A DNA stretch of 64,000 nt from NCBI GenBank assembly GCA_963792585.1, contig CAWBWI010000006.1:608001-672000 (forward strand), written 5' to 3'. Position numbers and translations under genes: made by a program. Positions 14,192 to 36,988 of this stretch are shown here, piece by piece. The number at the start of each line of letters is the position of its first letter. Position 1 is the stretch's first letter. The stretch is from Candidatus Eiseniibacteriota bacterium. GTDB lineage: Bacteria > Eisenbacteria > RBG-16-71-46 > CAIMUX01 > VGJL01. Below the pieces are notes generated by a model. The model was not told where the DNA came from and ran no database searches. It worked only from the letters and a program-made list of their open reading frames with translations.

Positions 14192-14198
14192 GAACCGT

Positions 14199-14329
14199 GT
14201 CTAACAGCCGCATTCACCTGACGCGCTGGGCCGTCACGGCCCTGGCAGAGACGCATAGAAGCTCGAACTATTACCGAGCGCTGCCAGGGCCGCGCCGGCC
14301 ACAGCCCGCAGGTGATGCGAACGTTAGAA
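14199..14329 (+). repeat. attC type A
   Basis: GTCTAAC...GTTAGAA. Confidence 0.9.
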
Positions 14330-14796
14330 GGTCTTTCACCAACTCCGAAGAATTCGCGATGTTCTCGGAAGCTCCTACCTGTCGTCAGCATGGAGGTCGG
14401 TGTCGAGCCTTCTCGCGCTGTGATCACACGCCAGATGACTTCGGCTCCCGCATCGCTGTGCCCTTTCCAACTAGGCCAGGGACTTCAAGAGCCGGCGGCG
14501 GCATGCCTGAGTTCTCCGAAGTGCCCTCAGATTCCACAACGGCTCATCCACTCGAGTCCCAGAAGCGTGGAAGAATCGGTTGTGCACGCGGGTTCGCCGG
14601 TGCAATCGCCGCCACCGGTCGCCATCACACGAAACCGGGTGGCCATCATTCAGCGAGTGAGGAAGCCGTTCTAACAGCCGCGTTCACCTGCCGCGCTTGC
14701 CCTGACACGGCTCTGGCGATGTCGCCAAGAACCCAAGAAACTGTCACCCGTGCTCGCCAGAGCCGCGCCAGGTCTGCGCCCGCAGGTGACGCGAAC
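14323..14796 (+). other. Frame-preserving 474-nt cassette without a recognisable gene (family C, copy 1)
   Basis: Three related copies; open in the attC frame from end to end. Confidence 0.7.
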
Positions 14797-14803
14797 GTTA
14801 GGT
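14669..14803 (+). repeat. attC type C
   Basis: TTCTAAC...GTTAGGT, 135 bp. Confidence 0.9.
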
Positions 14804-14865
14804 GTCTCTTGCGTCGGCCGTTATCACTCGCTGTCAGATCCCAGTTGGCACTCTTCCTTGAGGTC

Positions 14866-15252
14866 ATGTGCCTCACGGCCGTCGGGTGCTCATCCAGCAC
14901 AGTGGTTCAGCGAAGTGCACTCCCGACTCTCGCAGGCGATGCGTCCGGAACGAGTCATGCTCGCCTTGGCAAGAACGTCACCTTGCTTCTTGACGACCAT
15001 ACCAAGCTCAAGGGGAAGCTGATCCGAGTCTCCTGCCGCCCGGAGACCACCTTGGTCGTGGAAACAGACAACGCTTCGTCAGTTGACCCGTTCGCCGGGC
15101 GTCCCGATACCGTATCCGTCCCGCTGAGGGACGTCCGACGCATCATGACGCGCTCCACACCTGGCGGTGCTGTTATCGCGGCAGGGTTCTTTGTGGGAAT
15201 CGTGATTGTGGCGGTGGCCGTTGAGCCCAAGCTCTCGTTCCACCCAGATTGA
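14866..15252 (+). CDS. Hypothetical lipoprotein-like protein with C-terminal TM helix, in frame with the upstream attC ORF
   Basis: LTAVGC lipobox-like motif; near-identical copy at 19424. Confidence 0.55.
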   Translation: MCLTAVGCSSSTVVQRSALPTLAGDASGTSHARLGKNVTLLLDDHTKLKGKLIRVSCRPETTLVVETDNASSVDPFAGRPDTVSVPLRDVRRIMTRSTPGGAVIAAGFFVGIVIVAVAVEPKLSFHPD

Positions 15253-15277
15253 GGTCTGCAATGCTTTGTGGTTCGAC

Positions 15278-15408
15278 ACCTAACAGCCGCATTCACCTGA
15301 CGCGCTGGGCCGTCACGGCCCTGGCAGAGAAGCATAGAAGGCAAGATCATCGCCCCGGGCTGCCAGGGCCGCGCCGGCCACAGCTCGCAGGTGATGCGAA
15401 CGTTAGAA
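15278..15408 (+). repeat. attC type A
   Basis: ACCTAAC...GTTAGAA. Confidence 0.9.
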
Positions 15409-15876
15409 GGTCTTTCACCAACGCCGAAGAATTTCGCAATGTTCTCAGATGCTCCTGCCTGTCGTCAGCATTTCGGCCGGTGTCGAGCCTTCTCGCGCTG
15501 CAATCACACCGCCGATGACTTCGGCTGCTGCATCGCTGTGCCCTATCCAACTAGCCCGGGAACTTCAAAAGCCGGCGGCGGCATGCCTGAGCTCTCTGAA
15601 GCGCCCTCAGCATCCATCACGCCACAATTATTCGAGCTCCAGATGCATAGAGCTGCCAATCTTGCAGACGGATCCAATAGTGGAATTGCCGCCACCGGTT
15701 GCCATCCCACTGACTTGGGTGGCCATCATTCACCGCGAGAGGAAGCCATTCTAACAGCCGCGTTCACCTGCCGCGCTTGCCCTGACACGGCTCTGGCGGT
15801 GTCGCCAGGAACCCAGGAATCTGTCACCCGTGCTCGCCAGAGCCGCGCCAGGCCCGCGCCCGCAGGTGACGCGAAC
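15402..15876 (+). other. Family C cassette copy 2 (475 nt, +1 T near 15432)
   Basis: Homologous to 14323-14796. Confidence 0.7.
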
Positions 15877-15883
15877 GTTATGT
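15749..15883 (+). repeat. attC type C
   Basis: TTCTAAC...GTTATGT. Confidence 0.9.
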
Positions 15884-15926
15884 TGCGGTTGCGGCCAACG
15901 AGGCCTCCCATGGCGAGAACACTTTC

Positions 15927-16316
15927 ATGAGCAATCGCGTCCCTGGCATGCTCGTCTTGCTACTCACCTGCTTTGGGTGTGGCGACTCGCATGATCCCCG
16001 CCTCATTGTGGAAACCTCGATCACCATCAGCGGCACCGTCGTGGATAACTCTGATCAGTCACCTGCGGAGAGCGTCCTGGTTGTTCATGAGTTCTTCCAC
16101 AGCACCGACTCTTCTTGGACACCTTTCAACTCCTGCCTAACCAACGCGAACGGTTTCTACATCACCGGTGAGCCACAAACTGGTCGTCCATCTGGTCGGT
16201 TCTTGTTTCAGAAGCCTAGATACGAGCCCCTGATCCTCGGCGCCGAGGAGGCTCGTCAGGATAACAGCGGCTCCTTTGTCCTCGACGCGACCATTCAGCC
16301 AATCAGAGGAAATTGA
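15927..16316 (+). CDS. Lipoprotein, carboxypeptidase-regulatory-like beta domain
   Basis: CFGC lipobox; ISGTVVD...TNANGFY. Confidence 0.6.
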   Translation: MSNRVPGMLVLLLTCFGCGDSHDPRLIVETSITISGTVVDNSDQSPAESVLVVHEFFHSTDSSWTPFNSCLTNANGFYITGEPQTGRPSGRFLFQKPRYEPLILGAEEARQDNSGSFVLDATIQPIRGN

Positions 16317-16376
16317 CATGGGCCGTCACTCATTCGCCAATATCGGAGACCGATCGCCCACTGCTGAGGCCCGCGA

Positions 16377-16507
16377 ACATAACAACCGCATTCACCTGAC
16401 GCGCTGGCCCGTCACGGCCCTGGCAGAGAAGCATGGAAGCCAAGACCACCGCCTTGGGCTGCCAGGGCCGCGCCGGCCCCAGCCCGCAGGTGATGCGAAC
16501 GTTAGAC
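16377..16507 (+). repeat. attC type A
   Basis: ACATAAC...GTTAGAC. Confidence 0.9.
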
Positions 16508-16527
16508 GAGTATTACGCCGCAGAGCT

Positions 16528-17070
16528 ATGGCGTCCGTGTGGTCTGTCGGGACCCTCCTGATGGTCACTTCCTTTGCGATCGCCGCCGGCGAGAAGCCCA
16601 ATGCCGGGTACGGCTGTCGCCTAAGCGCCGATACTTCCCTCGTTGTAGGCTCTTCTTCACGCCGACTCGCGAAATTGGCCCAGTGTCCACCGCCCGTCTA
16701 CCCGGACAGCGCCAGGACCAACTGTATCTGTGGTCGCGTCCTTGCCCGTTGCAGCGTCCGCAGGTACGAGCCCATCCCGATTCGACGCTCCCCACCTCTG
16801 TTAGGTGATGGGGCCACCCGCCATGTCGAGATCATCACTGCTGAACCTCCAGGCATCTTCGAAGCCGCGGTCCGCCATGCACTCTCTCGCGCCCGCTTCT
16901 ACCTGCCGTCAGCTGCAGTAGGTGACACATCCGATGCAACGGCTTTGGTATCCGTTACGTTCGCACTCGATGCCAATGCTCGTTGGCGCGACTGCAAGTG
17001 CCTTCCCGATCACTACGCAGGGGCCACAGACAGCGTCATCGTCTCCGCTGCCATGTTGGTGATCCAGTGA
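16528..17070 (+). CDS. TonB C-terminal-like domain protein
   Basis: PPVYPDSAR...GRV...VEIITAEPPGIFEAAVRHAL. Confidence 0.6.
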   Translation: MASVWSVGTLLMVTSFAIAAGEKPNAGYGCRLSADTSLVVGSSSRRLAKLAQCPPPVYPDSARTNCICGRVLARCSVRRYEPIPIRRSPPLLGDGATRHVEIITAEPPGIFEAAVRHALSRARFYLPSAAVGDTSDATALVSVTFALDANARWRDCKCLPDHYAGATDSVIVSAAMLVIQ

Positions 17071-17077
17071 TGAGATC

Positions 17078-17208
17078 GTCTAACAGCCGCATTCACCTGA
17101 CGCGCTGGGCCGTCACGACCCTGGCAGAATTGCATAGAGGACCAATCTACCACCTCGGGCTGCCAGGGCCATGCCGGCCTCAGCCCGCAGGTGATGCGAA
17201 CGTTAGGC
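17078..17208 (+). repeat. attC type A
   Basis: GTCTAAC...GTTAGGC. Confidence 0.9.
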
Positions 17209-17223
17209 ACATGGGAGGCTGAG

Positions 17224-17802
17224 ATGTCCAAGTGCATGAGGGTGTTGCTTGCCTGTGCTCTTGCGATTGCTGTCCAGGCGGTAGCAGATCCAATCGACCA
17301 GTGTGGCCGCATCATTCCGAGCTGGGATTGCAGCATCTTCTACCCTCTCCAGGGCGGAGGCGCGAGGTACTCGATTGACGCGTCTTCGGTCCCGGACTCC
17401 TCATCGCGAATTGTTTGGCGGGTTGTTGGCGACGTGGTTTCCTGCGACCACGCCTGCAACGACGCTTCAGTCACCGATTGCATCATCAACAGCCATGTTT
17501 CCCCATGTCCATCGACTGACCTCGGATGCGGGGTACTTTCCAGACTCTATTATCCCGACATTGGGTATCTCTGCTTCTTCTGGACATCGCCCGTCTACGG
17601 TTCACTCCTAACACCCTCCCACGGCTTCGTAGCAGGGGACACGATCCACGTCGTAGGCATCGTTGACTACAGGGGTGTAACAGGTCCCTGTGACACTGCC
17701 GAAGGGTACTTGTGGAACGAAGTGCTCACTACTTGTTCAGACTCTGTTTCATCGGCCGAGGAAACGACCTGGGGAAGACTGAAGTTTCTCTTCCGGAGGT
17801 AA
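17224..17802 (+). CDS. Secreted Cys-rich two-repeat protein with TWG motif
   Basis: Signal peptide; CG...GFVAGDTIHVVG; ends TWGRLKFLFRR. Confidence 0.7.
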   Translation: MSKCMRVLLACALAIAVQAVADPIDQCGRIIPSWDCSIFYPLQGGGARYSIDASSVPDSSSRIVWRVVGDVVSCDHACNDASVTDCIINSHVSPCPSTDLGCGVLSRLYYPDIGYLCFFWTSPVYGSLLTPSHGFVAGDTIHVVGIVDYRGVTGPCDTAEGYLWNEVLTTCSDSVSSAEETTWGRLKFLFRR

Positions 17803-17810
17803 GGGCAGGT

Positions 17811-17941
17811 GCCTAACAGCCGCATTCACCTGACGCGCTGGGCCGTCACGGCCCTGGCAGAGACGCATAGAAGCCAAGACCATCGCCTCGGGCTGCCAGG
17901 GCCGCGCCGGCCTCAGCCCGCAGGTGATGCGAACGTTAGAC
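17811..17941 (+). repeat. attC type A
   Basis: GCCTAAC...GTTAGAC. Confidence 0.9.
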
Positions 17942-17945
17942 TGAT

Positions 17946-18344
17946 ATGAAACGACTTGATCACCGGCGGAGCAGGATTCTCATCATCGTACTTTGCCTCG
18001 TTATAGTGGCTGGGAGCGTTGATGGCGGCTTGTATCTGTCGTCGAAGCGCCCAGCGTCATCTCCGTCATCCACTTCGTTCGTGCGCCTGACAGCTCAATC
18101 CGCGATCCATCCTCTTATGGGATTCGCACTGCCGTTCATGTGCGTCGCGCGACAGGGTGGACTGGGTGGCTTCCTTGGAATCCTGGCGGTCCTGACGACG
18201 GCTCTTGTGGTTCTTGCAGCTCGCCACTTCCTGATTCGGGGGACCTGGAAAGCGCTCGGCGGGGTTCTCACCGCTGGGCTCTTCTCATATTGGTTGAGCA
18301 CACGATTGCTCTATGGAGTTCTCTATGGACCCGCTTGGTACTGA
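17946..18344 (+). CDS. Hypothetical membrane protein
   Basis: Several hydrophobic segments; paralog at 32795. Confidence 0.7.
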   Translation: MKRLDHRRSRILIIVLCLVIVAGSVDGGLYLSSKRPASSPSSTSFVRLTAQSAIHPLMGFALPFMCVARQGGLGGFLGILAVLTTALVVLAARHFLIRGTWKALGGVLTAGLFSYWLSTRLLYGVLYGPAWY

Positions 18345-18506
18345 GGCTCTGGCCTCCCTCGCGCTTGTTCGCGAGCGTGCGGTTGGTGCCATGGCGCTCC
18401 CGCACTCGAATACCAGGCTCATCCCAGAACCGCCCGTCCAGAATCGCGTCCGATCGTTCTCTCGCCTTGGAGTTGACCAGACTATTCCGAACCACTTGAG
18501 GCGCCA

Positions 18507-18637
18507 GTCTAACAGCCGCATTCACCTGACGCGCTGGGCCGTCACGGCCCTGGCAGAGAAGCATAGAAGGCAAGACCATCACCCGTGGCTGCCAGGGCCG
18601 CGCCGGCCACAGCCCGCAGGTGATGCGAACGTTAGGC
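18507..18637 (+). repeat. attC type A
   Basis: GTCTAAC...GTTAGGC. Confidence 0.9.
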
Positions 18638-19221
18638 CTCGTGTTGGCGTTCGAGCCTGCGTTGTCGTGCTCTTTCTCATCGTGTCGGCAATTGGGTGGT
18701 CGTTCGCTGATGCTCAGGATCCCCGCGACGCTTTCGACGGCTGCGGCGAGCTCGTCGACTGGAGCGGCTGCAGGTACCTCTACTCATACGACCAAGATGT
18801 CAATCTCCTTCTTGCTGACTTCGGTGGCTATGTCGCTGGAGATACAGTTCACGTCGTCGGCACAGCGAGCATCACTTTCGAGTCCTGCGCGGGAAGCCCC
18901 TTCTACTGGCGCCTCACCCCCAGTTCCATCACTCGGTGTCTTCCGTCCGACCTCGGGTGCGGAGTAATCGTTGGCAGCTTGGCCGCCGGGTGCTCGTACT
19001 GGTCCTCTGAAGCATATGGAAAACTCGACCTGCTTGACCGCCACGGGTTCGCGCCCGGTGACACGGTTCACGTGAGCGGGGTTGTGTGCTGGTGCGGGGG
19101 CCAGACATGTCATCCGTTTGGGGATGGTGAGATACGCAGTGAGAGGCTCAGAGCGTGTAGTGACTCACTTAGCGCAGTCGTACCCCTTACGTGGGGAAGG
19201 GTGCGAATGTTGTTCCGTTAG
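18631..19221 (+). CDS. Cys-rich TWG-motif protein lacking its own ATG; in frame with the upstream attC ORF
   Basis: NVRPRVGVRACVVVLFL... signal-like segment; ends TWGRVRMLFR. Confidence 0.7.
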   Translation, partial: VRPRVGVRACVVVLFLIVSAIGWSFADAQDPRDAFDGCGELVDWSGCRYLYSYDQDVNLLLADFGGYVAGDTVHVVGTASITFESCAGSPFYWRLTPSSITRCLPSDLGCGVIVGSLAAGCSYWSSEAYGKLDLLDRHGFAPGDTVHVSGVVCWCGGQTCHPFGDGEIRSERLRACSDSLSAVVPLTWGRVRMLFR

Positions 19222-19230
19222 GAGGACGAT

Positions 19231-19361
19231 GCCTAACAGCCGCATGCACCTGACGCGCTGGGCCGTCACGGCCCTGGCAGAGAAGCATAGAAGGCAAGAT
19301 CATCGCTCCGGGCTGCCAGGGCCGCGCCGGCCTCAGCTCGCAGGTGATGCGAACGTTAGGT
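19231..19361 (+). repeat. attC type A
   Basis: GCCTAAC...GTTAGGT. Confidence 0.9.
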
Positions 19362-19423
19362 GTCTCTTGCGTCGACCGTTATTACTCGCTGTCAGATCCC
19401 TGTTGGTACGCTTCCTTGAGGTC

Positions 19424-19810
19424 ATGTGCCTCACGGCCGTCGGGTGCTCATCCAGCACAGTGGTCCAGCGAAGTGCACTCCCGACTCTCGCAGGCGATGC
19501 GTCCGGAACGAGTCATGGTCGCCTTGGCAAGAACGTCACCTTGCTTCTTGACGACCATACCAAGCTCAAGGGGAAGCTGATCCGAGTCTCCTGCCAGCCG
19601 GAGACCACCTTGGTCGTGGAAACAGACAACGCTTCGTCAGTTGACCCGTTCGCCGGGCGTCCAGATACCGTATCCGTCCCGCTGAGGGAGGTCCGACGCA
19701 TCATGACGCGCTCCACACCTGGGGGTGCTGTTATCGCGGCAGGGTTCTTCGTGGGAATCGTGATTGTGGCGGTGGCCGCTGAGCCCAAGCTCTCGTTCCA
19801 CCCAGATTGA
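19424..19810 (+). CDS. Duplicate of the 14866 lipoprotein-like cassette
   Basis: Near-identical translation. Confidence 0.55.
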   Translation: MCLTAVGCSSSTVVQRSALPTLAGDASGTSHGRLGKNVTLLLDDHTKLKGKLIRVSCQPETTLVVETDNASSVDPFAGRPDTVSVPLREVRRIMTRSTPGGAVIAAGFFVGIVIVAVAAEPKLSFHPD

Positions 19811-19835
19811 GGTCTGCAATGCTTTGTGGTTCGAC

Positions 19836-19966
19836 ACCTAACAGACGCATTCACCTGACGCGCTGGACCGTCACGGCCCTGGCAGAGAAGCGTAGAACGC
19901 AAGACCATCAGCCGGGGCTGCCAGGGCCGCGCCGGCCTCAGCTCGCAGGTGATGCGAACGTTAGGA
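19836..19966 (+). repeat. attC type A
   Basis: ACCTAAC...GTTAGGA. Confidence 0.9.
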
Positions 19967-20419
19967 GGCACGACAGCTTGAGTAGCAATTTGCTCGAGGA
20001 CGTTTGAAGGGCCGATCCTGTGGGCCTTCGCTCTTGCGGAAGGGTCGGATGCCATCCATCCAGCCGAATCGTTGACTACGCTGAATCCACTGCGGCCGGA
20101 TGGTGCTCCTCCTCCTCCAATGAAAAACCTGCTCTTTGACCCCGACTCAGACGCCTCCAAGCCCTTGTGGCCCAAGCGAATCCACTTCAAACGAAGCCCA
20201 CTTTCAATTTGGTCGTGCCTGGACTCGGTGGTAGGCTTGATGCGCACAGCGGATGCGGAAGATTGAAACGACGGGGAATCGCTGGTGCAGGAATCCGGGG
20301 GCCGCGCGATGAGCAAGGTGCCCATTATCTCTTCCTCGACCTCATCCTCTCCATCCACGAGTGGATCCACACCTTCGTACTTGCCAATCAAGAAGGGCGT
20401 TCAAGGCGTTCCTCCTAAC
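19960..20419 (+). other. Gene-less cassette body, family D copy 1
   Basis: Only short ORFs; copies at 22108 and 50192. Confidence 0.65.
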
Positions 20420-20543
20420 AGCCGCATTCACCTGACGCGCTGGGCCGTCACGGCCCTGGCAGAGAAGCATAGAAAGCAAGACCATCGCCCCGGGCTGCCA
20501 GGGCCGCGCCAGCCACAGCCCGCAGGTGATGCGAACGTTATGT
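20413..20543 (+). repeat. attC type A
   Basis: TCCTAAC...GTTATGT. Confidence 0.9.
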
Positions 20544-20565
20544 TGAGAGTGAGGGGTGGTGCGCG

Positions 20566-21243
20566 ATGAGAATAGGGGTGCTCGCCTGCCTGAGCATCAC
20601 TCTTCTTCTCCCTGCGCGGGCGCAAGGGACCATTGAGGCGCAGCCGAAGCCGTTTCGTGGCGGATTCCAAATTGGGCTCAATGCCGCTCGCTTTGAGTTC
20701 CCCCATCCCGAGTACTTGCCACTTCCCCTCGACCACTACAAGTCCAGCAACTCATTTCGGGCGGGGTTAGTGGGAAATCTGTCGTTCGGAAGAGCCCCTT
20801 ATCTAGAATCCAGCATCCTCCTGAGTGTCAAAGGGATGAAGGCTGAAGACGTCGGTGGTATGGTCGGCGGCATAGGCGGGGAACAACAAGAGATTCGATA
20901 CGAACGTCACCGGCTCTACTACCTCTCACTGCCAATCACCGCGGGCTTCATCCTACCTACGGGGACTATTCGTCCCAGAATCTTCGCTGGCCCCGAGTTC
21001 AGCTACCTTCTGGCGGCCCGTTCCTCCACGAACCTGGGATCCGGCGACGTAAAATCGTTCTACCCGTCATCGGACTTCGGCCTAGTCGCGGGAGTCGGCG
21101 GTCTCGCGCATCTCGCGAACCAGACCATATCGCTCGATCTCGCATACACCTGGGGACTTACTGATCTCAACAACGGGGGCAACAGCGACGTTCATCACAT
21201 CTACAACCGAACGCTTTCCCTCACGATGGGGATCTGGCTATGA
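20566..21243 (+). CDS. Outer-membrane beta-barrel (porin-like) protein
   Basis: Signal peptide; YLSLPI, FAGPEFSYLL, DLAYTWGLTD; terminal aromatic strand. Confidence 0.75.
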   Translation: MRIGVLACLSITLLLPARAQGTIEAQPKPFRGGFQIGLNAARFEFPHPEYLPLPLDHYKSSNSFRAGLVGNLSFGRAPYLESSILLSVKGMKAEDVGGMVGGIGGEQQEIRYERHRLYYLSLPITAGFILPTGTIRPRIFAGPEFSYLLAARSSTNLGSGDVKSFYPSSDFGLVAGVGGLAHLANQTISLDLAYTWGLTDLNNGGNSDVHHIYNRTLSLTMGIWL

Positions 21244-21259
21244 GCCTCTGCGTGCTCCA

Positions 21260-21390
21260 ACATAACAGCCGCATTCACCTGACGCGCTGGGCCGTCACGG
21301 CCCTGGCAGAGAAGCATAGAGGGCAAGACCATCACCCGGGGCTGCCAGGTCCGCGCCGGCCACAGCCCGCAGGTGATGCGAACGTTAGGC
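21260..21390 (+). repeat. attC type A
   Basis: ACATAAC...GTTAGGC. Confidence 0.9.
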
Positions 21391-21974
21391 CTCGTGTTGG
21401 CGTTCGAGCCTGCGTTGTCGTGCTCTTTCTCATCGTGTCGGCAATTGGGTGGTCGTTCGCTGATGCTCAGGATCCCCGCGACGCTTTCGACGGCTGCGGC
21501 GAGCTCGTCGACTGGAGCGGCTGCAGGTACCTCTACTCATACGACCAAGATGTCAATCTCCTTCTTGCTGACTTCGGTGGCTATGTCGCTGGAGATACAG
21601 TTCACGTCGTCGGCACAGCGAGCATCACCTTCGAGTCCTGCGCGGGAAGCCCCTTCTACTGGCGCCTCACCCCCAGCTCCATCACTCGGTGTCTTCCGTC
21701 CGACCTCGGGTGCGGAGTAATCGTTGGCAGCTTGGCCGCCGGGTGCTCGTACTGGTCCTCTGAAGCATATGGAAAACTCGACCTGCTTGACCGCCACGGG
21801 TTCGCGCCCGGTGACACGGTTCACGTGAGCGGGGTTGTGTGCTGGTGCGGGGGCCAGACATGTCATCCGTTTGGGGATGGTGAGATACGCGGTGAGAGGC
21901 TCAGAGCGTGTAGTGACTCGCTTAGCGCAGTCGTACCCCTTACGTGGGGACGGGTGCGAATGTTGTTCCGTTAG
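21384..21974 (+). CDS. Duplicate of the 18631 Cys-rich TWG cassette; in-frame start ATG 21240 lies in the previous cassette
   Basis: Near-identical sequence; ORF 21240-21974 is continuous. Confidence 0.7.
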   Translation, partial: VRPRVGVRACVVVLFLIVSAIGWSFADAQDPRDAFDGCGELVDWSGCRYLYSYDQDVNLLLADFGGYVAGDTVHVVGTASITFESCAGSPFYWRLTPSSITRCLPSDLGCGVIVGSLAAGCSYWSSEAYGKLDLLDRHGFAPGDTVHVSGVVCWCGGQTCHPFGDGEIRGERLRACSDSLSAVVPLTWGRVRMLFR

Positions 21975-21983
21975 GAGGACGAT

Positions 21984-22114
21984 GCCTAACTGCCGCATTC
22001 ACCTGACGCGCTGGGCCGTCACGGCTCTGGCAGAGAAGCATAGAAGGCAAGACCATCACCCGGGGCTGCCAGGGCCGCGCCGGCCTCAGCCCGCAGGTGA
22101 TGCGAACGTTAGGA
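21984..22114 (+). repeat. attC type A
   Basis: GCCTAAC...GTTAGGA. Confidence 0.9.
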
Positions 22115-22567
22115 GGCACGACAGCTTGAGTAGCAATTTGCTCGAGGACGTTTGAAGGGCCGATCCTGTGGGCCTTCGCTCTTGCGGAAGGGTCGGATGC
22201 CATCCATCCAGCCGAATCGTTGACTACGCTGAATCCACTGCGGCCGGATGGTGCTCCTCCCCCTCCAATGAAAAACCTGCTCTTTGACCCCGACTCAGAC
22301 GCCTCCAAGCCCTTGTGGCCCAAGCGAATCCACTTCAAACGAAGCCCACTTTCAATTTGGTCGTGCCTGGACTCGGTGGTAGGCTTGATGCGCACAGCGG
22401 ATGCGGAAGATTGAAACGACGGGGAATCGCTGGTGCAGGAATCCGGGGGCCGCGCGATGAGCAAGGTGCCCATTATCTCTTCCTCGACCTCATCCTCTCC
22501 ATCCACGAGTGGATCCACACCTTCGTACTTGCCAATCAAGAAGGGCGTTCAAGGCGTTCCTCCTAAC
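22108..22567 (+). other. Gene-less cassette body, family D copy 2
   Basis: Near-identical to 19960-20419. Confidence 0.65.
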
Positions 22568-28567: not shown

Positions 28568-28587
28568 GTCTCTTGAGGGAGGAGCAC

Positions 28588-29097: not shown

Positions 29098-29107
29098 CTG
29101 CCCTCAC

Positions 29108-29238
29108 GTCTAACAGCCGCGTTCACCTGCCGGGCGGCTCCGTCACGGCCCTGGCGAGGAAGCCAATGAAGATGAATCACCGCGCCGTGCCGCCAGGTCC
29201 GCGCCGGACCTCGCCCGCAGGTGACGCGAACGTTAGAA
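29108..29238 (+). repeat. attC type B
   Basis: GTCTAAC...GTTAGAA. Confidence 0.9.
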
Positions 29239-29705
29239 GGTCTTTCACCAACGCCGAAGAATTCGCGATGTTCTCAGACGCTCCTGCCTGTCGTCAGCAT
29301 GTCGGCCGGTGTCGAGCCTCCTCGCGCTGCAATCACACCGCCGATGACTTCGGCTGCCGCATCCCAGTGCCCTTTCCAACTAGCCAGGGCATTTCAAAAG
29401 CCGGCGGCGGCATGCCTGAGCTCTCTGAAGCGCCCTCAGCATCCATCACGCCACGTCCAATCGAGCTTCAGATGCATAGAGCTGCCGATCATGCAGACGG
29501 ATCCAATAGTGGAATTGCCGCCACCGGTCGCCATCACACGAAACTGGGTGGCCATCATTCACCGGGTGAGGAAGCCGTTCTAACAGCCGCGTTCACCTGC
29601 CGCGCTTGCCCTGACACGGCTCTGGCGGTGTCGCCAAGAACCCAACAATCAGCCACCCGTGATCGCCAGAGCCGCGCCAGGTCTGCGCCCGCAGGTGACG
29701 CGAAC
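29232..29705 (+). other. Family C cassette copy 3 (474 nt)
   Basis: ORF 29094-29726 passes through two attC sites. Confidence 0.7.
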
Positions 29706-29712
29706 GTTAGAT
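29578..29712 (+). repeat. attC type C
   Basis: TTCTAAC...GTTAGAT. Confidence 0.9.
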
Positions 29713-29727
29713 GCTGGACGGCCTAGC

Positions 29728-30540
29728 ATGAATCATCAAGTCCCAACGTCAGGGTACCTTGGGAAGGAAGGTAGTGACTGGTCCGCCCGAATGCAGCAGC
29801 AGCATTCGCAGCTGTTCGATGTTTGCACGGCCATGAATACTGCAGCTCACTCCGTCGTCCGTGAGTTGCAGCCGCGCCCTTTCGCGCCTCAGGAATCCAT
29901 CGCAGTCGGTCTGTACCTGCGATGCCTCGACCACTTTCAGAGCGTCGTACTGTTGCGCCGTCAAGGCATGCGAGCACCGGCAAAGGCAGCTCTGCGATGC
30001 TTACTAGAGTGCTTGTTCACAATGCGCGCGATTGTTCGTGACAAGAGTACCTTCACGCATTACGTGCGCAGCGATGACCTTCGCAGGCGCAAGCTCCTCG
30101 ACAAATGTCGTCGTACCGTTTCCACGATCTTCTCCGGTCTTCGCGGACCCGAGGCCGCGACACTACGCGATGAACTCCAAGAGGCCATTCGCACGGAAAA
30201 CATCAGGGAACTCACGGTCGCCCAGCTTGCGGAGAAGGCTGATCTACTGGACATGTACCTTGTCGTGTACAGCGTCCTCTGCAGTTCGGTTCATTCCACT
30301 TCCCGGGATCTTGTGGAGACAATCGCTTTCGACCAGACGAACGGGGTCATCGTCCTCAATACGGGTCCGTCTATGCAGGACGCGTACCTCGACCTCTGCA
30401 CTGCATGCCAGTCGATGGCCCTCGCTCTCGGGGAACTAGGGACGCTCCTAGCTCTGGACGTATCTGACACGGTCAAGTCTCACATGACGGCCGCGAGCGA
30501 TATGCTTGCCCGACACTCCGGAGCAGCCAATGGCATCTAA
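29728..30540 (+). CDS. Hypothetical helical protein (DUF5677-like)
   Basis: LRCLLE...LAEKADL...YSVLCSSVH pattern. Confidence 0.55.
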   Translation: MNHQVPTSGYLGKEGSDWSARMQQQHSQLFDVCTAMNTAAHSVVRELQPRPFAPQESIAVGLYLRCLDHFQSVVLLRRQGMRAPAKAALRCLLECLFTMRAIVRDKSTFTHYVRSDDLRRRKLLDKCRRTVSTIFSGLRGPEAATLRDELQEAIRTENIRELTVAQLAEKADLLDMYLVVYSVLCSSVHSTSRDLVETIAFDQTNGVIVLNTGPSMQDAYLDLCTACQSMALALGELGTLLALDVSDTVKSHMTAASDMLARHSGAANGI

Positions 30541-30665
30541 CAGCCGCGTTCACCTGCCGGGCGGCTCCGTCACGGCCCTGGCGAGGAAGCCAATGAAGAT
30601 GAATCACCACCTGGTGTCGCCAGGTCCGCGCCGGACCTCGCCCACAGGTGACGCGAACGTTATGC
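30535..30665 (+). repeat. attC type B
   Basis: ATCTAAC...GTTATGC. Confidence 0.9.
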
Positions 30666-30681
30666 CCAGGAGGATGCCCCG

Positions 30682-31071
30682 ATGTCGGTGATCCGCCGCC
30701 TTCCCCTAACGATCCTCATCGCGCTCGTCGGGCTCGTTCCTGCTTGTATCACTGACGATCAACCGCCTCCGGTGGGTGACATTTTCCGAAGCGTCCGGGG
30801 CACCGTGACCGATGTCAGCACGAGTCTCCCTCTATCCGGCGTCACCTGCTTCTGGTCTGACTCATTGCCCTACTACGAGACTTCCGTAACTGACTCCACG
30901 GGGGCTTACAGTGTTCGCGGCTCTGGATCACCTGTTGGCCTTCCAGCAATAGGCCATCTGACTTTCGCGAAGATTGGCTATGACACCTTGACTACTCCTG
31001 CGGCGGCGCTCTTCCCAGACTTGGACACCCAACGATGCACCTACGATGTCAGGATGGTTCGACACCCATGA
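30682..31071 (+). CDS. Lipoprotein, carboxypeptidase-regulatory-like domain
   Basis: LVPAC; VRGTVTD...PLSGV...TDSTGAY...AKIGY. Confidence 0.65.
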   Translation: MSVIRRLPLTILIALVGLVPACITDDQPPPVGDIFRSVRGTVTDVSTSLPLSGVTCFWSDSLPYYETSVTDSTGAYSVRGSGSPVGLPAIGHLTFAKIGYDTLTTPAAALFPDLDTQRCTYDVRMVRHP

Positions 31072-31135
31072 GCCAGATCGAGGAAATAGTTGCGTGCTTC
31101 CGCGGTGACCTCATCGATGGGATTGTCTGGTCCGG

Positions 31136-31266
31136 GCATAACAGCCGCATTCACCTGACGCGCTGGGCCGTCACGGCCCTGGCAGAAGAGCATAGAAGGC
31201 AAGACCATCACCAGAGGCTGCCAGGGCCGCGCCGGCCTCAGCCCGCAGGTGATGCGAACGTTATGT
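31136..31266 (+). repeat. attC type A
   Basis: GCATAAC...GTTATGT. Confidence 0.9.
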
Positions 31267-31282
31267 TGTTGTGGAGCACTTC

Positions 31283-31978
31283 ATGAGAACCACTTGCGTG
31301 CGAACCTTCATCACGCTCATCGTCTTGGCTCTCTCCATTGTGCCCTTGGACAGCGCCGATGCTTCGGCACGCAGGCTGCGCCCGTCTGCAACCTTGGGTC
31401 TGGTCAGCAGCGGCTTTGCCCCGAACGACGGGGCATTCCACGACTTTCAGCGATCCACGCACTTCACTGCCGGACTGATTCTCGCCCGACATCAGTCACC
31501 CAACTCAGCAATTGAAATGGGTCTCATTCTTGAGCGGCGGGGAACCTCCTGGCGCTCGACCTTTGCCCCCGATGGCGAGTATCGCGAAGCTAAAGGGTTC
31601 ACTCGAAACCTCGATCTCGCGTATCTGGCAGTCCCTCTGCGAATCAGGGCGGGTCTAGCTTCGGGCCGTATTCTACCGTCGCTCCACGCTGGCATGGAGT
31701 TCGGTTGCCTCATGTGGGCTCGCCAGACCACCACCGATCTCCAAAGCGGCATCCGATACGCCGCAGACAACGCCGTTCGCGATGAACTTAGGTCGTGGGA
31801 GGTTGCTGGCTCCATCGGGGGTAGGCTTGCCACCCGGTGGTCGACCCGACTGATCTTCATTGATCTAACGTATGTCCACGGACTCACCTCAGTGGACGAC
31901 GGGGCATTCAAGATCGAAGGTGACATTCCGAGCATTGCGAATCGCGGCATCAGAATGTCCTTGGGCAGCTCGATATGA
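31283..31978 (+). CDS. Outer-membrane beta-barrel protein
   Basis: LAYLAVPL, DLTYVHGLTSV; same family as 20566. Confidence 0.7.
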   Translation: MRTTCVRTFITLIVLALSIVPLDSADASARRLRPSATLGLVSSGFAPNDGAFHDFQRSTHFTAGLILARHQSPNSAIEMGLILERRGTSWRSTFAPDGEYREAKGFTRNLDLAYLAVPLRIRAGLASGRILPSLHAGMEFGCLMWARQTTTDLQSGIRYAADNAVRDELRSWEVAGSIGGRLATRWSTRLIFIDLTYVHGLTSVDDGAFKIEGDIPSIANRGIRMSLGSSI

Positions 31979-31991
31979 CTTTTGTGCTGCA

Positions 31992-32122
31992 ACATAACAG
32001 CCGCATTCACCTGACGCGCTGGGCCGTCACGGCCCTGGCAGAGAAACCTAGAAGTTCGAACCATCACCTCGGGCTGCCAGGGCCGCGCCGGCCTCAGCTC
32101 GCAGGTGATGCGAACGTTAGGC
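31992..32122 (+). repeat. attC type A
   Basis: ACATAAC...GTTAGGC. Confidence 0.9.
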
Positions 32123-32149
32123 GCAGTTGTCTCCTGTGAGGTAATAGCT

Positions 32150-32641
32150 ATGATCTCAATACTGATGATGGCGTTCCTTCTCTCCCCATCAGCAGCCCTT
32201 GCCTCCGCTGCCGACGAGGTTGATTTCGAGGCACATCTCGACGCTGAACAGGTTGTGCCGCCTACGGCATCCCCCGGGTCCGCTGTGGTCGCGATCTCAT
32301 TCCAGGTCGAGGAGTTAAGCGATCCCCAGCCTGGCAACTTCGACATCGTCTGCGCTGATCTTTCGGGTCCGCCGACTGGCGTTTCCATTAGATGGGGCAA
32401 CGCTAGCGAGAATGGTCCGCTTGCACTCACCATTCTCAACCGTTCATTCACTTGCCCAGCCAGTGGGGGCATTAGTGTCCCGTGGAGTGTCCTCAGTCAA
32501 TTCTGGCATTCTGACACGCTCTATGTACTGATTCATACCGACGCGTTTCCCGATGGCGAGCTTCGCGGCCAATTCTCAAACGTGACTCCTCCGGCGGTCC
32601 AGATGGAGTCCTGGGGATATGTCCGTGGCCTATTCCACTGA
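32150..32641 (+). CDS. Secreted CHRD-domain protein with SWG motif
   Basis: FEAHLDAEQVVPP...LYVLIHTDAFPDGELRGQ; ends SWGYVRGLFH. Confidence 0.8.
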   Translation: MISILMMAFLLSPSAALASAADEVDFEAHLDAEQVVPPTASPGSAVVAISFQVEELSDPQPGNFDIVCADLSGPPTGVSIRWGNASENGPLALTILNRSFTCPASGGISVPWSVLSQFWHSDTLYVLIHTDAFPDGELRGQFSNVTPPAVQMESWGYVRGLFH

Positions 32642-32659
32642 CACCATGCCCTACGTCGC

Positions 32660-32790
32660 GCCTAACAGCCGCATGCACCTGACGCGCTGGGCCGTCACGG
32701 CCCTGGCAGAGAAGCATAGAGGGCAAAACCATCACCCCGGGCTGCCAGGGCCGCGCCAGCCTCAGCTCGCAGGTGATGCGAACGTTAGAC
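32660..32790 (+). repeat. attC type A
   Basis: GCCTAAC...GTTAGAC. Confidence 0.9.
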
Positions 32791-32794
32791 TGAT

Positions 32795-33193
32795 ATGAAA
32801 TGGCTTGAGCACCGGCGTACCAGGGTTCTCATCATCGTACTTTGCCTCGTCATAGTGGCAGGGAGCGTTGATGGCGGCTTCTATCTGTCGTCGAAGCACC
32901 CGGCGTCGTCCCCATCATCCGCTTCGTTACTGCGGCTGATGGCTCAATCCGCCATCCATCCTGTCATTGGATTGGCACTACCGTTCATGGGCCTCGTGCG
33001 ACAGGGTGGACTCGGCGGCTTCCTTGGAATCCTGGCGGTCCTCACCACGGCTCTTGTGGTTCTCGCAGCCCGCCATTTTCTGATTCGGGGGACCTGGAGA
33101 GCGCTCGGCGGGGTTCTCACCGCTGGGCTCTTCTCGTATTGGTTGACCACGCGCTTGCTCTATGAGGTTTTCTATGGATCAGCCTGGTACTGA
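32795..33193 (+). CDS. Membrane protein, paralog of 17946
   Basis: High similarity to 17946. Confidence 0.7.
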   Translation: MKWLEHRRTRVLIIVLCLVIVAGSVDGGFYLSSKHPASSPSSASLLRLMAQSAIHPVIGLALPFMGLVRQGGLGGFLGILAVLTTALVVLAARHFLIRGTWRALGGVLTAGLFSYWLTTRLLYEVFYGSAWY

Positions 33194-33355
33194 GGCTCTG
33201 GCCTTCCTCGCGGCTGTTCGCAAGCGTGCGGAGAGCGCAATGGCGCTCACGCCCTCGAGTACCCGGTTCATCCCAGAATCGCCCGTCCAGAATCGCATCC
33301 GGTCGTTCTCCGGCCGTGGAGTCGGCCAAATGATCCCGAACCTCTCGAGGCGCCA

Positions 33356-33486
33356 GTCTAACAGCCGCATTCACCTGACGCGCTGGGCCGTCACGGCCCC
33401 GGCAGAGAAGCATAGAAGGCAAGATCATCGCCCCGGGCTGCCAGGGCCGCGCCGGCCTCAGCCCGCAGGTGATGCGAACGTTAGGC
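33356..33486 (+). repeat. attC type A
   Basis: GTCTAAC...GTTAGGC. Confidence 0.9.
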
Positions 33487-33501
33487 TTCTTTGAGGACCT
33501 C

Positions 33502-34168
33502 ATGAGTTCTTCCGACGAGAGGATTCACCCGTTCTTCCGGGCTACCAATCCGCATGGGAACGTCCGCTTCAACTTCCGATCCGCAGCTCCGGAAGAACTT
33601 GTGGCCTTTGCCATGGGTTACCACAAGGCTGGCCGCGTCCTCGTCAAGAGATTGGCACAGGCACCAGGGTATGCGGACTATGATGGCTATCCCATTCTCT
33701 ATCTCTACCGCCACGCCCTTGAGCTCTACTCTTAAGAGCATCATCTACAGAGGCGGAAAGTACCTCGGGCTCATGTCCGAACACACTCTGAATGCGGAAC
33801 GGTTCTTTGGTTCGCATGACCTCACGCGGCTACTACCTGCCGTGCGAGAGGTCTTTGATCACGTTGGGTGGCGCAGCGATCTTGGCATCCCCGGCCTCCT
33901 CACTTGGGTAGACTTCACGAAACTCGTCGAAGCGATTGACTCAATCGACCATGGTTCATACACCTTCAGGTATCCCATGGACAAGCGTGGGGCATCAGCA
34001 CTCCCCCATCACCTCGTGTTGAACGTTGTTGCCTTCGGCCAGCAAATGGATCCCGTCCTCGAGCTTCTAGATGGTGCCGCAAGTGGCCTCAGCGACAAGT
34101 GGGACAACGCAGCAGAGGCATGTTACTTCCTCCAAGAGATCGCAAAGGAATGGGGCAATGAAGCCTAA
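33502..34168 (+). pseudogene. Frameshifted hypothetical gene (HEPN-like YLYRHALEL...HDL...FRYP)
   Basis: Two ORFs join as ...HALELY/LKSIIY... around 33730. Confidence 0.6.
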
Positions 34169-34293
34169 CAGCCGCATTCACCTGACGCACTGGGCCGTCA
34201 CGGCCCTGGCAGAGACGCATAGAAGGCAAGACCATCACCCGGGACTGCCAGGGCCGCGCCGGCCACAGCCCGCAGGTGATGCGAACGTTAGGC
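34163..34293 (+). repeat. attC type A
   Basis: GCCTAAC...GTTAGGC. Confidence 0.9.
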
Positions 34294-34865
34294 ATCATTT
34301 CGCACTCAATCTTGGCGTCATCCCGATCGCGCTATTCGTCGCTGCATGGTTGTCCGCATCAATCGTGACCGCCGAACCCGTTGATGAATGCGGGCGGTTC
34401 TTCACCTCCACGGGCTGCGTTGAGTTCTACCCCGTACGAGGCCAGGCGATGTACATCACGGATCTCGACAGTCTTCCTCCGGGTGGAACCGAGATACCCT
34501 TCAGACTACGAGGTGATCTCGTTCAGCTCGAGCGGATCTGCGATGGTTGGCTCTTCCACGAATGCATCATCAATGCGGCAGTGCTTCCTTGCGAGCCTGA
34601 GTCTCTCGGGTGTGGAGTTCTTTCGAGAGATAACGAGGATGCGTGCTCGTACTGGACGTCGGCCAAGTACGGCATGTTGGTGACTGCCCTCAATGGTTTC
34701 TCGCCTGGGGATACGGTTCTGGCCGTAGGCATACTGGATTACTCGCTCGGAACTTGGTGCATCGGGATTGGCTTCATCGACAATCCCGTATTCTCCGCTT
34801 GCCCCGACTCGCTTTCGCCTGTCGTTCGCACTACCTGGGGCACTCTCAAGGCGATCTTCAGGTAG
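34287..34865 (+). CDS. Cys-rich TWG protein lacking its own start before the signal segment; in-frame ATG 34158 lies in the previous cassette
   Basis: NVRHHFALNLGVIPIALFV...; ends TWGTLKAIFR. Confidence 0.7.
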   Translation, partial: VRHHFALNLGVIPIALFVAAWLSASIVTAEPVDECGRFFTSTGCVEFYPVRGQAMYITDLDSLPPGGTEIPFRLRGDLVQLERICDGWLFHECIINAAVLPCEPESLGCGVLSRDNEDACSYWTSAKYGMLVTALNGFSPGDTVLAVGILDYSLGTWCIGIGFIDNPVFSACPDSLSPVVRTTWGTLKAIFR

Positions 34866-34875
34866 GAGGTCTGAT

Positions 34876-35006
34876 GCCTAACAGACGCGTTCACCTGCCG
34901 GGCGGCTCCGTCACGGCCCTGGCGAGGAAGCCGATGAAGATGAATCACCACCCGGTGCCGCCAGGTCCGCGCCGGACCTCGCCCGCAGGTGACGCGAACG
35001 TTAGAT
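34876..35006 (+). repeat. attC type B
   Basis: GCCTAAC...GTTAGAT. Confidence 0.9.
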
Positions 35007-35029
35007 GAACTTGAGGTGGAGGTAGCGCC

Positions 35030-35662
35030 ATGCGTGACATAGCCCCAGATGAGGTGCCAGAAGCGCGCGCATCTTGTCAACCAGTGCTTCGACTCTTCTT
35101 ACTCTTCGCCGCCATCCTCCTCGTCGGCCCGGCGCATTCCGGACCGCCCCGATATGCTCCCGAGCGGGGCTACCTAACAACGGGCGTGCTACGTCGGCAA
35201 CCACCCGACACATGTCTCGTCCTCGTGAACCTCATGCAAGTTCCCCCTGCACTGCTCGACACCTATGACGCGTTCGCCGAGGGCGACACAGTAGTCGTTA
35301 CCGGCGATCTCCCGGTCAATCTCCCGAATCTCTTCTGCGGAGTTGAGTTCTGGATTCACCACAACCGAGTGTTTCCGTACAGGGGTGTGATTGACCTTGA
35401 GTGCGGCGTACTTGTTGAAGACGACCCAGGGGACTGCGGGTACTTTGACTCATTCCGATTTGGTAGGTTCCACACTGGCATGGGCCCTCCGTTTTCCGAT
35501 GGCGACTCGGTTCATGTCTGGGGCCGTTTCCGCGAAGACTGGTATTCATGGTGTTCCTCCGACTACCCGGCGACGGAAGTAACCAAGATCATTGCCTGCC
35601 CTGACACGAGTACTGCCGTCCAACCGACAACTTGGGGTCGGCTCCGGGTTCTCTTTCGGTAG
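35030..35662 (+). CDS. Secreted Cys-rich two-repeat protein with TWG motif
   Basis: FAEGDTVVVTG / FSDGDSVHVWG; ends TWGRLRVLFR. Confidence 0.7.
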   Translation: MRDIAPDEVPEARASCQPVLRLFLLFAAILLVGPAHSGPPRYAPERGYLTTGVLRRQPPDTCLVLVNLMQVPPALLDTYDAFAEGDTVVVTGDLPVNLPNLFCGVEFWIHHNRVFPYRGVIDLECGVLVEDDPGDCGYFDSFRFGRFHTGMGPPFSDGDSVHVWGRFREDWYSWCSSDYPATEVTKIIACPDTSTAVQPTTWGRLRVLFR

Positions 35663-35678
35663 GCAATATGTGGGAGTC

Positions 35679-35809
35679 ATCTAACTGCCGCGTTCACCTG
35701 CCGGGCGGGTCCGTCACGGCCCTGGCGAGGAAGCCTATGATGATAAATCACCACCTGGTGGCGCCAGGTCCGCGCCGGACCTCGCCCGCAGGTGACGCGA
35801 ACGTTAGAT
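35679..35809 (+). repeat. attC type B
   Basis: ATCTAAC...GTTAGAT. Confidence 0.9.
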
Positions 35810-35825
35810 GCCTTGGGGGTGCAGC

Positions 35826-36338
35826 ATGGGCGTAGCACCTGGCTTCATGGCAGCTTGCCTCTTGACTACCCTGCTGTATGGAGGAAGCAGTACTGCCCAC
35901 GCTGACCCCTTCGTCATTGGCGGAGTGCCAGTGTCCTATTCATTGGCCGATCTCAAGATTACCTTGTCATATGGCTTGTCCGACGAAGTAGTCCTCGACG
36001 GCTCCACTGGACAGGCCACGAGGACCGTCCGATCGTCGACGGACTCAACGCACGTGGTTACTCGCACTCTTGATGACAGGGAGGTTGTTGACCTTCTCAG
36101 TCGGTTCTACGAGATGCACTTCTTCGAATTCCCAGTGGAGTTCCATTCATTCTCTGGAATGGAGTTCAACCCCGATGGCCGATGGGTCAATACCGTCGCG
36201 GCTTGTACTGATCACTTCGCAACGCTTACTGTCCGCATAGGTTCATTCACGAAGGAAGTACGCATCCGCAAGACGTCTTCCCCACCAGTCCTTCTAGCAA
36301 TGGCCGATAGCCTCCGCACTCTTGCGAGGACGCGATGA
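35826..36338 (+). CDS. Hypothetical secreted protein
   Basis: Signal peptide ending AHA; fills the cassette. Confidence 0.6.
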   Translation: MGVAPGFMAACLLTTLLYGGSSTAHADPFVIGGVPVSYSLADLKITLSYGLSDEVVLDGSTGQATRTVRSSTDSTHVVTRTLDDREVVDLLSRFYEMHFFEFPVEFHSFSGMEFNPDGRWVNTVAACTDHFATLTVRIGSFTKEVRIRKTSSPPVLLAMADSLRTLARTR

Positions 36339-36348
36339 ACCACGAGGC

Positions 36349-36479
36349 ATCTAACTGCCGCATTCACCTGACGCGCTGGGTCGTCACGGCCCTGGCAGAG
36401 AAGCATAGCAGCTCGAACCATCACCCCGGGCTGCCAGGGCCGCGCCGGCCTCAGCCCGCAGGTGATGCGAACGTTAGAT
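36349..36479 (+). repeat. attC type A
   Basis: ATCTAAC...GTTAGAT. Confidence 0.9.
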
Positions 36480-36988
36480 GTGTGAGTTACTCAGCTCCGC
36501 CATTCCCTGACAGGGGGGCGCTGAAGTCAAGACAGGCAACGACAAACCAGAACCACCCTCAGAGAGGTTTGTCCAGCTTCCGCGCCCAATCCGCTCGGCG
36601 AGCAGGCTTTCTCACAGTGTTGCTTGCCTGCGCTAGTTTCGGTGGATGCGGCCTCAGGACCGTCTGCAAAGTCGGCACGGGAGCTCACGTCACGCAAGAA
36701 TGCCTTTCTTTGCGGATCAGGGCCGGGCAGGAAATCTGGGTCGATTCCACCTCGCGGGACCGGCAATCTGGGTATTACCTCGGCGTCCGAGACTTCGACG
36801 GTCAGCCAACCCTTGTCCTCGGACGCTATTCCCCGCTCCAGGCGTCCGGCTTCGACTCCAGCCGCATCCGAACGGACCACATACGACAGGTTCTGCGTCA
36901 TCGCGAGGCACCCTCCTACCTTGCCATCACCGCGATGGGAGGGATCGTCTTGGCGGGCGCGATCCTCATCGCCACTCAGGGGAGTTGA
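36473..36988 (+). CDS. Lipoprotein-like protein lacking its own ATG, fused to the attC ORF from 36335
   Basis: FGGC lipobox-like motif; C-terminal TM helix. Confidence 0.5.
   Translation, partial: VRCVSYSAPPFPDRGALKSRQATTNQNHPQRGLSSFRAQSARRAGFLTVLLACASFGGCGLRTVCKVGTGAHVTQECLSLRIRAGQEIWVDSTSRDRQSGYYLGVRDFDGQPTLVLGRYSPLQASGFDSSRIRTDHIRQVLRHREAPSYLAITAMGGIVLAGAILIATQGS

Follow-up and report, generated by a model that had tools for sequence, protein, structure and literature searches.

A shared reading frame across attC sites and a possible ribosome relay in a chromosomal integron array of a Candidatus Eiseniibacteriota bacterium

Translation is known to link neighbouring integron cassettes in a few ways. 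The short open reading frames (ORFs) of attC sites (Jacquier et al. 2009, as presented in passages of PMC8876359 and PMC11511950) begin at the stop of the upstream gene, unfold the attC hairpin and pass ribosomes on to the next cassette through termination-reinitiation; a passage of PMC11511950 counts them among exceptions, limited to few cassettes and seemingly anecdotal. For ORF-11, ORF-17 and ORF-18 of attI1, the relevant section of PMC8876359 states that translation of the ORF, and not its sequence, helps cassettes without a translation-initiation region, that ORF-18 extends past the core site into the cassette leader, and that a canonical initiation region is missing from about 20% of cassettes. 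PMC11511950 also describes, in part of its text, a translation-dependent polarity in which translation of the upstream cassette sets downstream expression. In a class 1 integron, according to an excerpt of PMC3375312, GCUF1-OXA-28 is translated in frame through an intact attC, the signal at residues 103-121 is cleaved in vivo, and output depends on the upstream cassette. Here we analyse a chromosomal integron array of 36 cassettes, followed after position 39734 by a mixed distal array, in a 64,000-nucleotide (nt) stretch of a Candidatus Eiseniibacteriota genome (contig CAWBWI010000006.1, positions 608,001 to 672,000, forward strand; hereafter the window). The array carries one open frame across every attC, and a few of its cassettes appear to lack a start of their own.

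The locus resembles sedentary chromosomal integrons in its IntI integrase, inferred attI, long array, species-type attC repeats and toxin-antitoxin cassettes, and differs from them in having intI on the array strand and in its translational layout. As with the attC mini-ORFs, the frame starts at or near the upstream stop and would couple to the next cassette; unlike them, it is the same frame at all 36 junctions, and it does not end at the core TAG but continues over the crossover. ORF-11/17/18 serve the first position only, by coupling, whereas here every tail supplies a start and some cassettes lack a canonical one. GCUF1-OXA-28 is a single case in which the downstream gene keeps its ribosome-binding site (RBS) and ATG and is silenced by the fusion, whereas here fusion is predicted to be the sole route for some cassettes. 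The mode of action would thus be like that of ORF-11 and attC mini-ORF coupling, with read-through added. A literature search by title and start of abstract, with most subscription journals outside its scope, returned no array-wide read-through frame and no start-codon-less cassettes; nor do the portions seen of 10.1101/2020.08.07.237602, PMC9892861 and PMC9410878 mention start-less cassettes. We call frame 0 the reading frame that takes the crossover GTT as one codon.

12846..13016, + strand: frame-0 ORF over the inferred attI crossover (12978), with ATGs at 12846 and 12867; putatively ORF-11-like
13505..39741, + strand: 36 attC sites of three related types, frame 0 open to the crossover from a start at 36/36

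Measured from the AAC of the R'' box to the crossover, most attC sites were 120 nt long, three were 124 nt and one 119 nt. Because 120 is a multiple of three and the site holds no frame-0 stop, frame 0 crosses GTT rather than ending at the core TAG, and this crossing makes in-frame genes without a start possible. Folded as RNA, the three types gave -72 to -80 kcal/mol (z -5.5 to -8.5), and cassette head and tail were complementary over about 7-12 nt in 24/24 cassettes. On its own, the open attC frame was rejected as evidence, because 43% of shuffles keep a 40-codon attC open by chance and the state represents one ancestral event. The loop of B-type sites (e.g. 26289-26408) contains a run that resembles the Shine-Dalgarno (SD) motif, and in-frame ATGs. 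At the sole 119-nt site (37793) the tail frame is lost, and the resulting stop overlaps an internal B-type ATG.

The layout was tested on a curated set of 29 cassettes with one + strand gene, 24 of them unique after collapsing paralogues; seven cassettes were omitted (three gene-less, two unclear at 19960 and 22108, and two toxin-antitoxin cassettes). A frame-0 ATG or GTG lay between gene stop and attC in 22/24 unique cassettes (shuffles: mean 8.1, maximum 15). Bias from the G of the R'' box was ruled out as the source of this signal, which persisted when the biased codon was excluded and only ATG was counted (16/24; shuffles 3.2, maximum 10). All six ATGA overlaps at gene ends entered frame 0 (p=0.0014). 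The frame therefore opens at or near the upstream stop, as in the attC mini-ORFs. At the other end, the first frame-0 stop was no more than 13 nt from the start in 16/16 out-of-frame genes (shuffles 5.2; shuffling the untranslated region only, 9.6, maximum 15), compared with 2/16 and 5/10 for frames 1 and 2. Nine of these 16 had an ATGA overlap (shuffles 1.5), and the five with the weakest SD were all ATGA-coupled or one base past the stop. Termination near the next gene's start, the second mini-ORF hallmark, was thus seen in 16/16 curated genes and in 11-12/17 under a blind start rule; it does not apply to the seven unique in-frame cassettes.

Across all 36 junctions, a frame-0 start (ATG or GTG) within 260 nt was open to the crossover; 34 of these starts precede the attC and two junctions depend on ATGs within B-type attCs, while frames 1 and 2 had zero such starts ahead of the attC. 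The in-frame state itself was rejected as evidence, since genes occupied frame 0 at the chance level (8/24 unique, p=1.0) and the signal therefore does not lie there. The stretch from crossover to gene start was open in 7/8 genes of frame 0, 5/5 of frame 1 and 9/11 of frame 2, and N-termini without an ATG occurred in 4/8 frame-0 genes versus 1/16 others (p=0.028). The frame-0 starts in tails, the coupling of out-of-frame genes to a frame-0 stop and the excess of ATG-less frame-0 N-termini are non-random.

Frame 0 also continues over a cassette whose genes point the other way.

24778..25548, + strand: 256-codon frame-0 ORF, antisense over the inverted PIN/RHH toxin-antitoxin cassette

The stop of this ORF overlaps starts that lie in frame 0 of the next attC. 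Antisense to both PIN/RHH genes the frame is open for 214 codons, which 0.14% of synonymous recodings match (p=0.0014, one post hoc test). This openness speaks against the idea that the register is a footprint of cassette formation, with ends cut in register with the frames of donor operons or transcripts, and not the result of selection for a relay. That idea draws on the resemblance of heads to the end of an upstream gene and of tails to the start of a downstream one (ATGA at both ends), and it gains from the fact that we know of no established mechanism of cassette formation. It sits poorly with a register that is weak in the 56 cassettes of other integrons described below, and with tail starts that persist through paralogue divergence. 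We regard it as very unlikely as the main cause; codon-registered ends may nevertheless record how cassettes form.

Outside the array, 12/15 attCs of this family elsewhere in the genome had a frame-0 ATG within 51 nt upstream (shuffles 2.2, maximum 8), in a test that was fixed after about ten of the 15 sites had already been seen. Small diverged attC clusters far from the integrase, with frame 0 open and fed, were noted at G000:C1 1880077-1940720 (- strand), C1 267362-268394 (+) and C3 1030147 (+). A blind pipeline run on 58 stretches from 20 genomes of the phylum plus 80 GTDB integrase loci recovered cassettes at 19 loci, 56 of them unique. A start from which frame 0 stays open across the attC was present in 19/24 cassettes here and 3/56 of those in other integrons (p=4e-11), where 13/56 used the frame ending at the core TAG instead; among eight open frame-0 genes in other integrons, none was ATG-less over 60 codons. 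A relay as a property of all integrons was therefore not supported. In one genome of another genus of the same family (G002), whose attC is different and about 117 nt long, frame-0 starts were present at 6/7 sites and long in-frame genes at 4/7. In one of these, a lipoprotein-like ORF of 217 codons without a Pfam match, the earliest canonical start is codon 25, three codons ahead of the Cys. In G002, too, intI lies on the array strand.

Among representative metagenome proteins, 56 carry the attC peptide, and in seven of them, from other sources, it extends into a hydrophobic segment; this set is conditioned on frame-0 gene calls and uninformative on tail frequency. In the protein sequences P0022 and P0033, both with a lipoprotein-like signal, the first Met, Val or Leu comes at codons 17 and 19, although the P0022 allele P0076 carries a Val at position 6. 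Nine metagenome proteins gave no Pfam match. The exact attC motif was absent from the 40 relatives, GTDB contigs and viral contigs searched and matched a single, uninformative metagenome contig. Contigs of four DNA runs carry the attC family and several cassettes (their depth and joints were not used as evidence), and the listed holders of the family included no RNA dataset. A 15-letter pattern search in five genomes was dropped, its hits being partly at control level.

The first-pass annotation of the window had proposed that some cassettes are start-less and borrow an N-terminus from whichever cassette lies upstream. Its observations were confirmed: the cassettes at 18631, 21384, 34287 and 36473 have no ATG before or within the hydrophobic segment and are open from the crossover GTT; those at 14797, 16501, 19355, 26409, 27837 and 28561 are also open from GTT in the open frame of the upstream attC; and the upstream ATGs at 18391, 21240 and 27708 exist in frame with their cassettes. 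Which of these genes need a borrowed start was judged by scoring start candidates against the host's own anti-SD sequence.

34287..34865, + strand: strictly start-less gene by this scoring, 192 codons, of a Cys-rich exported-protein family
18631..19221, + strand: probably start-less gene, 196 codons
21384..21974, + strand: near-identical copy of 18631
27837..28427, + strand: paralogue of 18631 (87%), with an SD-less ATG at codon 13
36473..36988, + strand: in-frame gene with a lipoprotein-like signal at about codons 46-59, fed by the ATGA-coupled ATG 36335
14797..15252, + strand: in-frame lipoprotein-like gene with its own TTG at codon 5 and a 5-nt SD (-5.1 kcal/mol)
19355..19810, + strand: copy of the 14797 gene, same TTG at codon 5 and 5-nt SD
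16501..17070, + strand: in-frame TonB_C-like gene; its own ATG, codon 10, lacks an SD and precedes the hydrophobic segment
26409..27668, + strand: in-frame membrane-protein gene; its own ATG, codon 20, lacks an SD and precedes the hydrophobic segment
28561..29097, + strand: in-frame CHRD-domain gene; a strong SD (-9.3 kcal/mol) accompanies its own ATG

By these scores only 34287 is strictly start-less: its first ATG, GTG or TTG is at codon 22, beyond the hydrophobic peak (residues 9-19). Genes 18631 and 21384 are probably start-less, their sole early candidate being an SD-less GTG at codon 13 within the hydrophobic segment. The status of 27837 is ambiguous because of its SD-less ATG at codon 13, and so is that of 36473, which has possible internal starts at GTG 4, CTG 17 (a purine run at short spacing) and TTG 33. 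The starts predicted for 28561 and for 14797/19355 are their own, and these genes are not start-less. The borrowed start is thus well supported for 34287 and likely for 18631/21384, could go either way for 27837 and 36473, and is unneeded for 28561, 14797 and 19355. Gene 26409 is fed by ATG 26343 within a B-type attC, preceded by an SD-like run.

The relay might be real and yet do no more than melt the hairpin, the ATG-less cassettes initiating by themselves at GTT or at an internal GTG, TTG, CTG or ATC. The right arm of the attC contains an SD-like AGGTGAT that pairs with the host 16S tail (-7.8 kcal/mol) at an aligned spacing of 10 from GTT, and a start at GTT would yield signal peptides of 28-29 residues, an ordinary length; candidates also exist in 27837 (the ATG at codon 13) and in 36473 (CTG, TTG). 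In the folded attC, however, AGGTGAT and GTT are both base-paired (probability of being unpaired about 0.01). In Escherichia coli, as given in part of 10.1101/063800, initiation reaches 1-2% of the AUG level at AUC and CUG and 0.1-1% at codons that are not among the seven most efficient, with GUU not given separately. A start at codon 13 would leave a 16-residue signal without a basic residue, and P0008 and P0070, homologues at 65-67%, have Ala at that position. We consider self-initiation unlikely, though the least improbable of the competing accounts.

Another possibility is that the start-less cassettes are 5'-truncated captures, barely expressed or exported, so that only stop-start coupling matters. 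Just one to three unrelated cassettes are involved, most of the Cys-rich relatives found in other genomes carry a Met with an SD shortly ahead of the signal, and long leaders lower export (an excerpt of PMC3375312). Against truncation, the 18631 family is under purifying selection: the ratio of nonsynonymous to synonymous rates (dN/dS) was 0.35 for 18631 versus 27837 (p=3e-4) and 0.08 for 18631 versus 21384, and three copies are retained. For 34287, a contig of another study spans the whole cassette with 40 differences and no gap. Truncation thus appears improbable to us, more so than self-initiation. The Cys-rich exported family, with an internally repeated motif, has seven copies (17224, 18631, 21384, 27837, 34287, 35030 and 37202) and no Pfam match; it was matched in 10/206 genomes of the phylum, this one included, and an Atlas search with 34287 gave no usable match.

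The in-frame cassettes in question are preceded by leaders of 42-80 residues, of which those for the Cys-rich genes are listed here.

34158..34286, + strand: 43-codon leader feeding 34287, its ATG overlapping the last codons of the upstream gene
18391..18630, + strand: 80-codon leader feeding 18631, with more in-frame ATGs at 18313 and 18325
21240..21383, + strand: 48-codon leader feeding 21384, with an ATGA overlap with the upstream gene's stop
27708..27836, + strand: 43-codon leader feeding 27837, via a B-type attC with further in-frame ATGs

ATG 18391 is kept in the paralogous tail at 33240. With signal peptides judged by hydropathy and motif, the array contains the predicted counterpart of the GCUF1 fusion, an ORF that continues in frame across an intact attC and has its signal peptide in the interior. 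Retention of the gene's own RBS and start, as in GCUF1-OXA-28, was seen for 28561 and 14797/19355 and not for 34287 or 18631/21384. The first-pass annotation spoke of a basic attC-derived N-terminus; the leaders are mildly basic (K+R 5-13, D+E 1-6), and most of the basic residues beside the hydrophobic helix belong to the Val-Arg head of the cassette itself. A functional attC peptide was rejected, as attC variants were neutral in frame 0 (22 synonymous of 89, versus 43/192 possible) and the peptide had no Pfam match.

These data bear on the strongest form of the earlier proposal, in which the attC leader is a functional module and shuffling yields combinatorial fusions with different properties. 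Part of it stands, since the same cargo does occur behind different leaders, both in the window and in five metagenome protein pairs with two leaders each, two of these cargoes lying behind both attC types; the leader of 26409, a multi-pass membrane protein, might also remain attached. Against it, the attC variants are protein-neutral, A- and B-type leaders that differ in sequence feed the same cargo, and the leader lies ahead of the predicted cleavage site. Because the leader lacks amino-acid conservation and precedes that site, it should not diversify the mature protein; cassette shuffling should then change how much is expressed and not what is made. We regard functional leader modules as highly improbable.

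The reading that we favour, with moderate confidence, is that the array forms a ribosome relay with one standard frame on which some in-frame cassettes depend. A frame-0 start is present in the 3' tail of each cassette or in the B-type attC, often at or just past the gene's stop; frame 0 runs stop-free across the 120-nt attC and past the crossover GTT; and in the next cassette it ends at or near the gene start or is the gene's own frame, all of which can be read from the DNA. Ribosomes would re-initiate at this start, open up the hairpin of -72 to -80 kcal/mol, and then either re-initiate on the next gene or produce a fusion. As a start would come from any neighbour, in-frame cassettes may persist without their own. 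For 34287, and probably for 18631/21384, this would give precursors with 43-80 extra residues, lost on cleavage of predicted signals that end at about residue 71-108. The array-wide layout is real and strongly non-random; read-through would make GCUF1-type fusion routine and permit a few start-less cassettes.

Several points weigh against this reading. The starts used in the curated head test were picked after the sequence had been seen, and with the blind start rule on 24 automatically found cassettes the head proximity fell to 11-12/17 versus 10/36 elsewhere (p=0.016 for 11/17). The blind ATGA excess in frame-2 genes was not significant (6/9 versus 5-6/15, p=0.2-0.4). The detector misses sites and misassigns some genes, and the comparison set is small, noisy and mixed. 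Several tail starts lack an SD, and a shuffle test cannot show stop avoidance inside the attC. In 18631 and 27837, the distance from codon 13 (GTG and ATG, respectively) to the first conserved Cys is about the same as that from the Met in the self-starting paralogues. Among described systems, attC deletion altered downstream expression in only 4/10 class 1 cassettes (a passage of PMC11511950), and the GCUF1-OXA-28 fusion was exported inefficiently, as stated in part of PMC3375312.

With these points counted, we hold the relay itself to be likely and, granted the relay, fusion-dependent expression of 34287 to be equally so. Fusion-dependent expression is somewhat more probable than its opposite for 18631/21384, and the chances are about balanced for 27837 and 36473. 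A more ambitious version, for which we see less than even chances, is a frame-standardised translation bus: attI, all tails, the three attC types and the gene-less and inverted toxin-antitoxin cassettes would share one continuous frame, on which obligately dependent exported-protein cassettes evolved with their level set by the upstream cassette. We reasonably infer neighbour-dependent expression, as the first-pass annotation had claimed, for nearly the whole array, mostly by stop-start coupling (16/24 unique genes) and not by fusion. An array-wide relay would be a concrete answer to how promoter-distal cassettes of long chromosomal integrons are expressed. Start-less cassettes, if real, would mean that some cassettes are not self-contained genes, and that cassette order tunes expression by way of the neighbour's start in addition to distance. 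Gene callers cut such genes short or join them to attC peptides, as in the 56 representatives above, and the layout would be a natural design for shuffleable, translationally coupled operons.

The remaining features concern the integron setting.

11016..12026, + strand: IntI integron integrase (Pfam PF00589 and PF13495; TIGR02249, E 2.5e-129), with a putative start codon
14323..14796, + strand: cassette without a recognisable gene, 474 nt, frame 0 open through the cassette and its 124-nt attC
29232..29705, + strand: second 474-nt copy of the gene-less cassette, frame 0 likewise passing through

The locus has several defining parts of an integron: an integrase, attC sites with R'' and R' boxes and an imperfect hairpin, and cassettes whose mobility is indicated indirectly by the same cassette having different neighbours. 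IntI scored 431.9 bits against TIGR02249 (cut-off 265), as an integron-type tyrosine recombinase. intI is oriented towards the array (11016-12978), and a MazF-like toxin gene together with a short upstream ORF lies between the two. The putative attI (first crossover at 12978) was placed by its location and by the head/tail complementarity of cassette 1. Two frames are open there, one ending at the core TAG (ATG 12860) and the read-through frame 0, whose stop overlaps the first gene's ATG at 13013 (ATGA). A consensus scan for the Pc promoter from 12113 to 12978 gave no + strand site.

A 475-nt copy of the gene-less cassette (15402-15876) returns to frame 0 via an internal ATG. The copies at 14323, 15402 and 29232 have their own 124-nt attC type and substitutions that look neutral (dN/dS 0.8); such cassettes could be spacers or promoter carriers, and P0014 is a metagenome homologue. 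A three-copy cassette (19960-20536, 22108-22684 and 50192-50648) has no clear + strand gene, and a Pfam search with its long minus-strand frame gave no match; it occurs behind two different attC types (19960 and 50192). A frameshift breaks the gene in cassette 33480-34168 into a part at 33502-33735 and a second frame that runs to 34168, and a contig from another run has a gap over this cassette. Many genes for unrelated exported proteins between 13013 and 37780 (CHRD-domain, Cys-rich and others) share a C-terminal tail, Thr-Trp-Gly followed by a basic-aromatic-Arg end, which is present in relatives too and looks like a C-terminal sorting signal. Between 40850 and 63000 of the window, short attCs of other types are interspersed with attCs of this family, and the distal cassettes there include, by eye, DHFR-like and methyltransferase-like genes.

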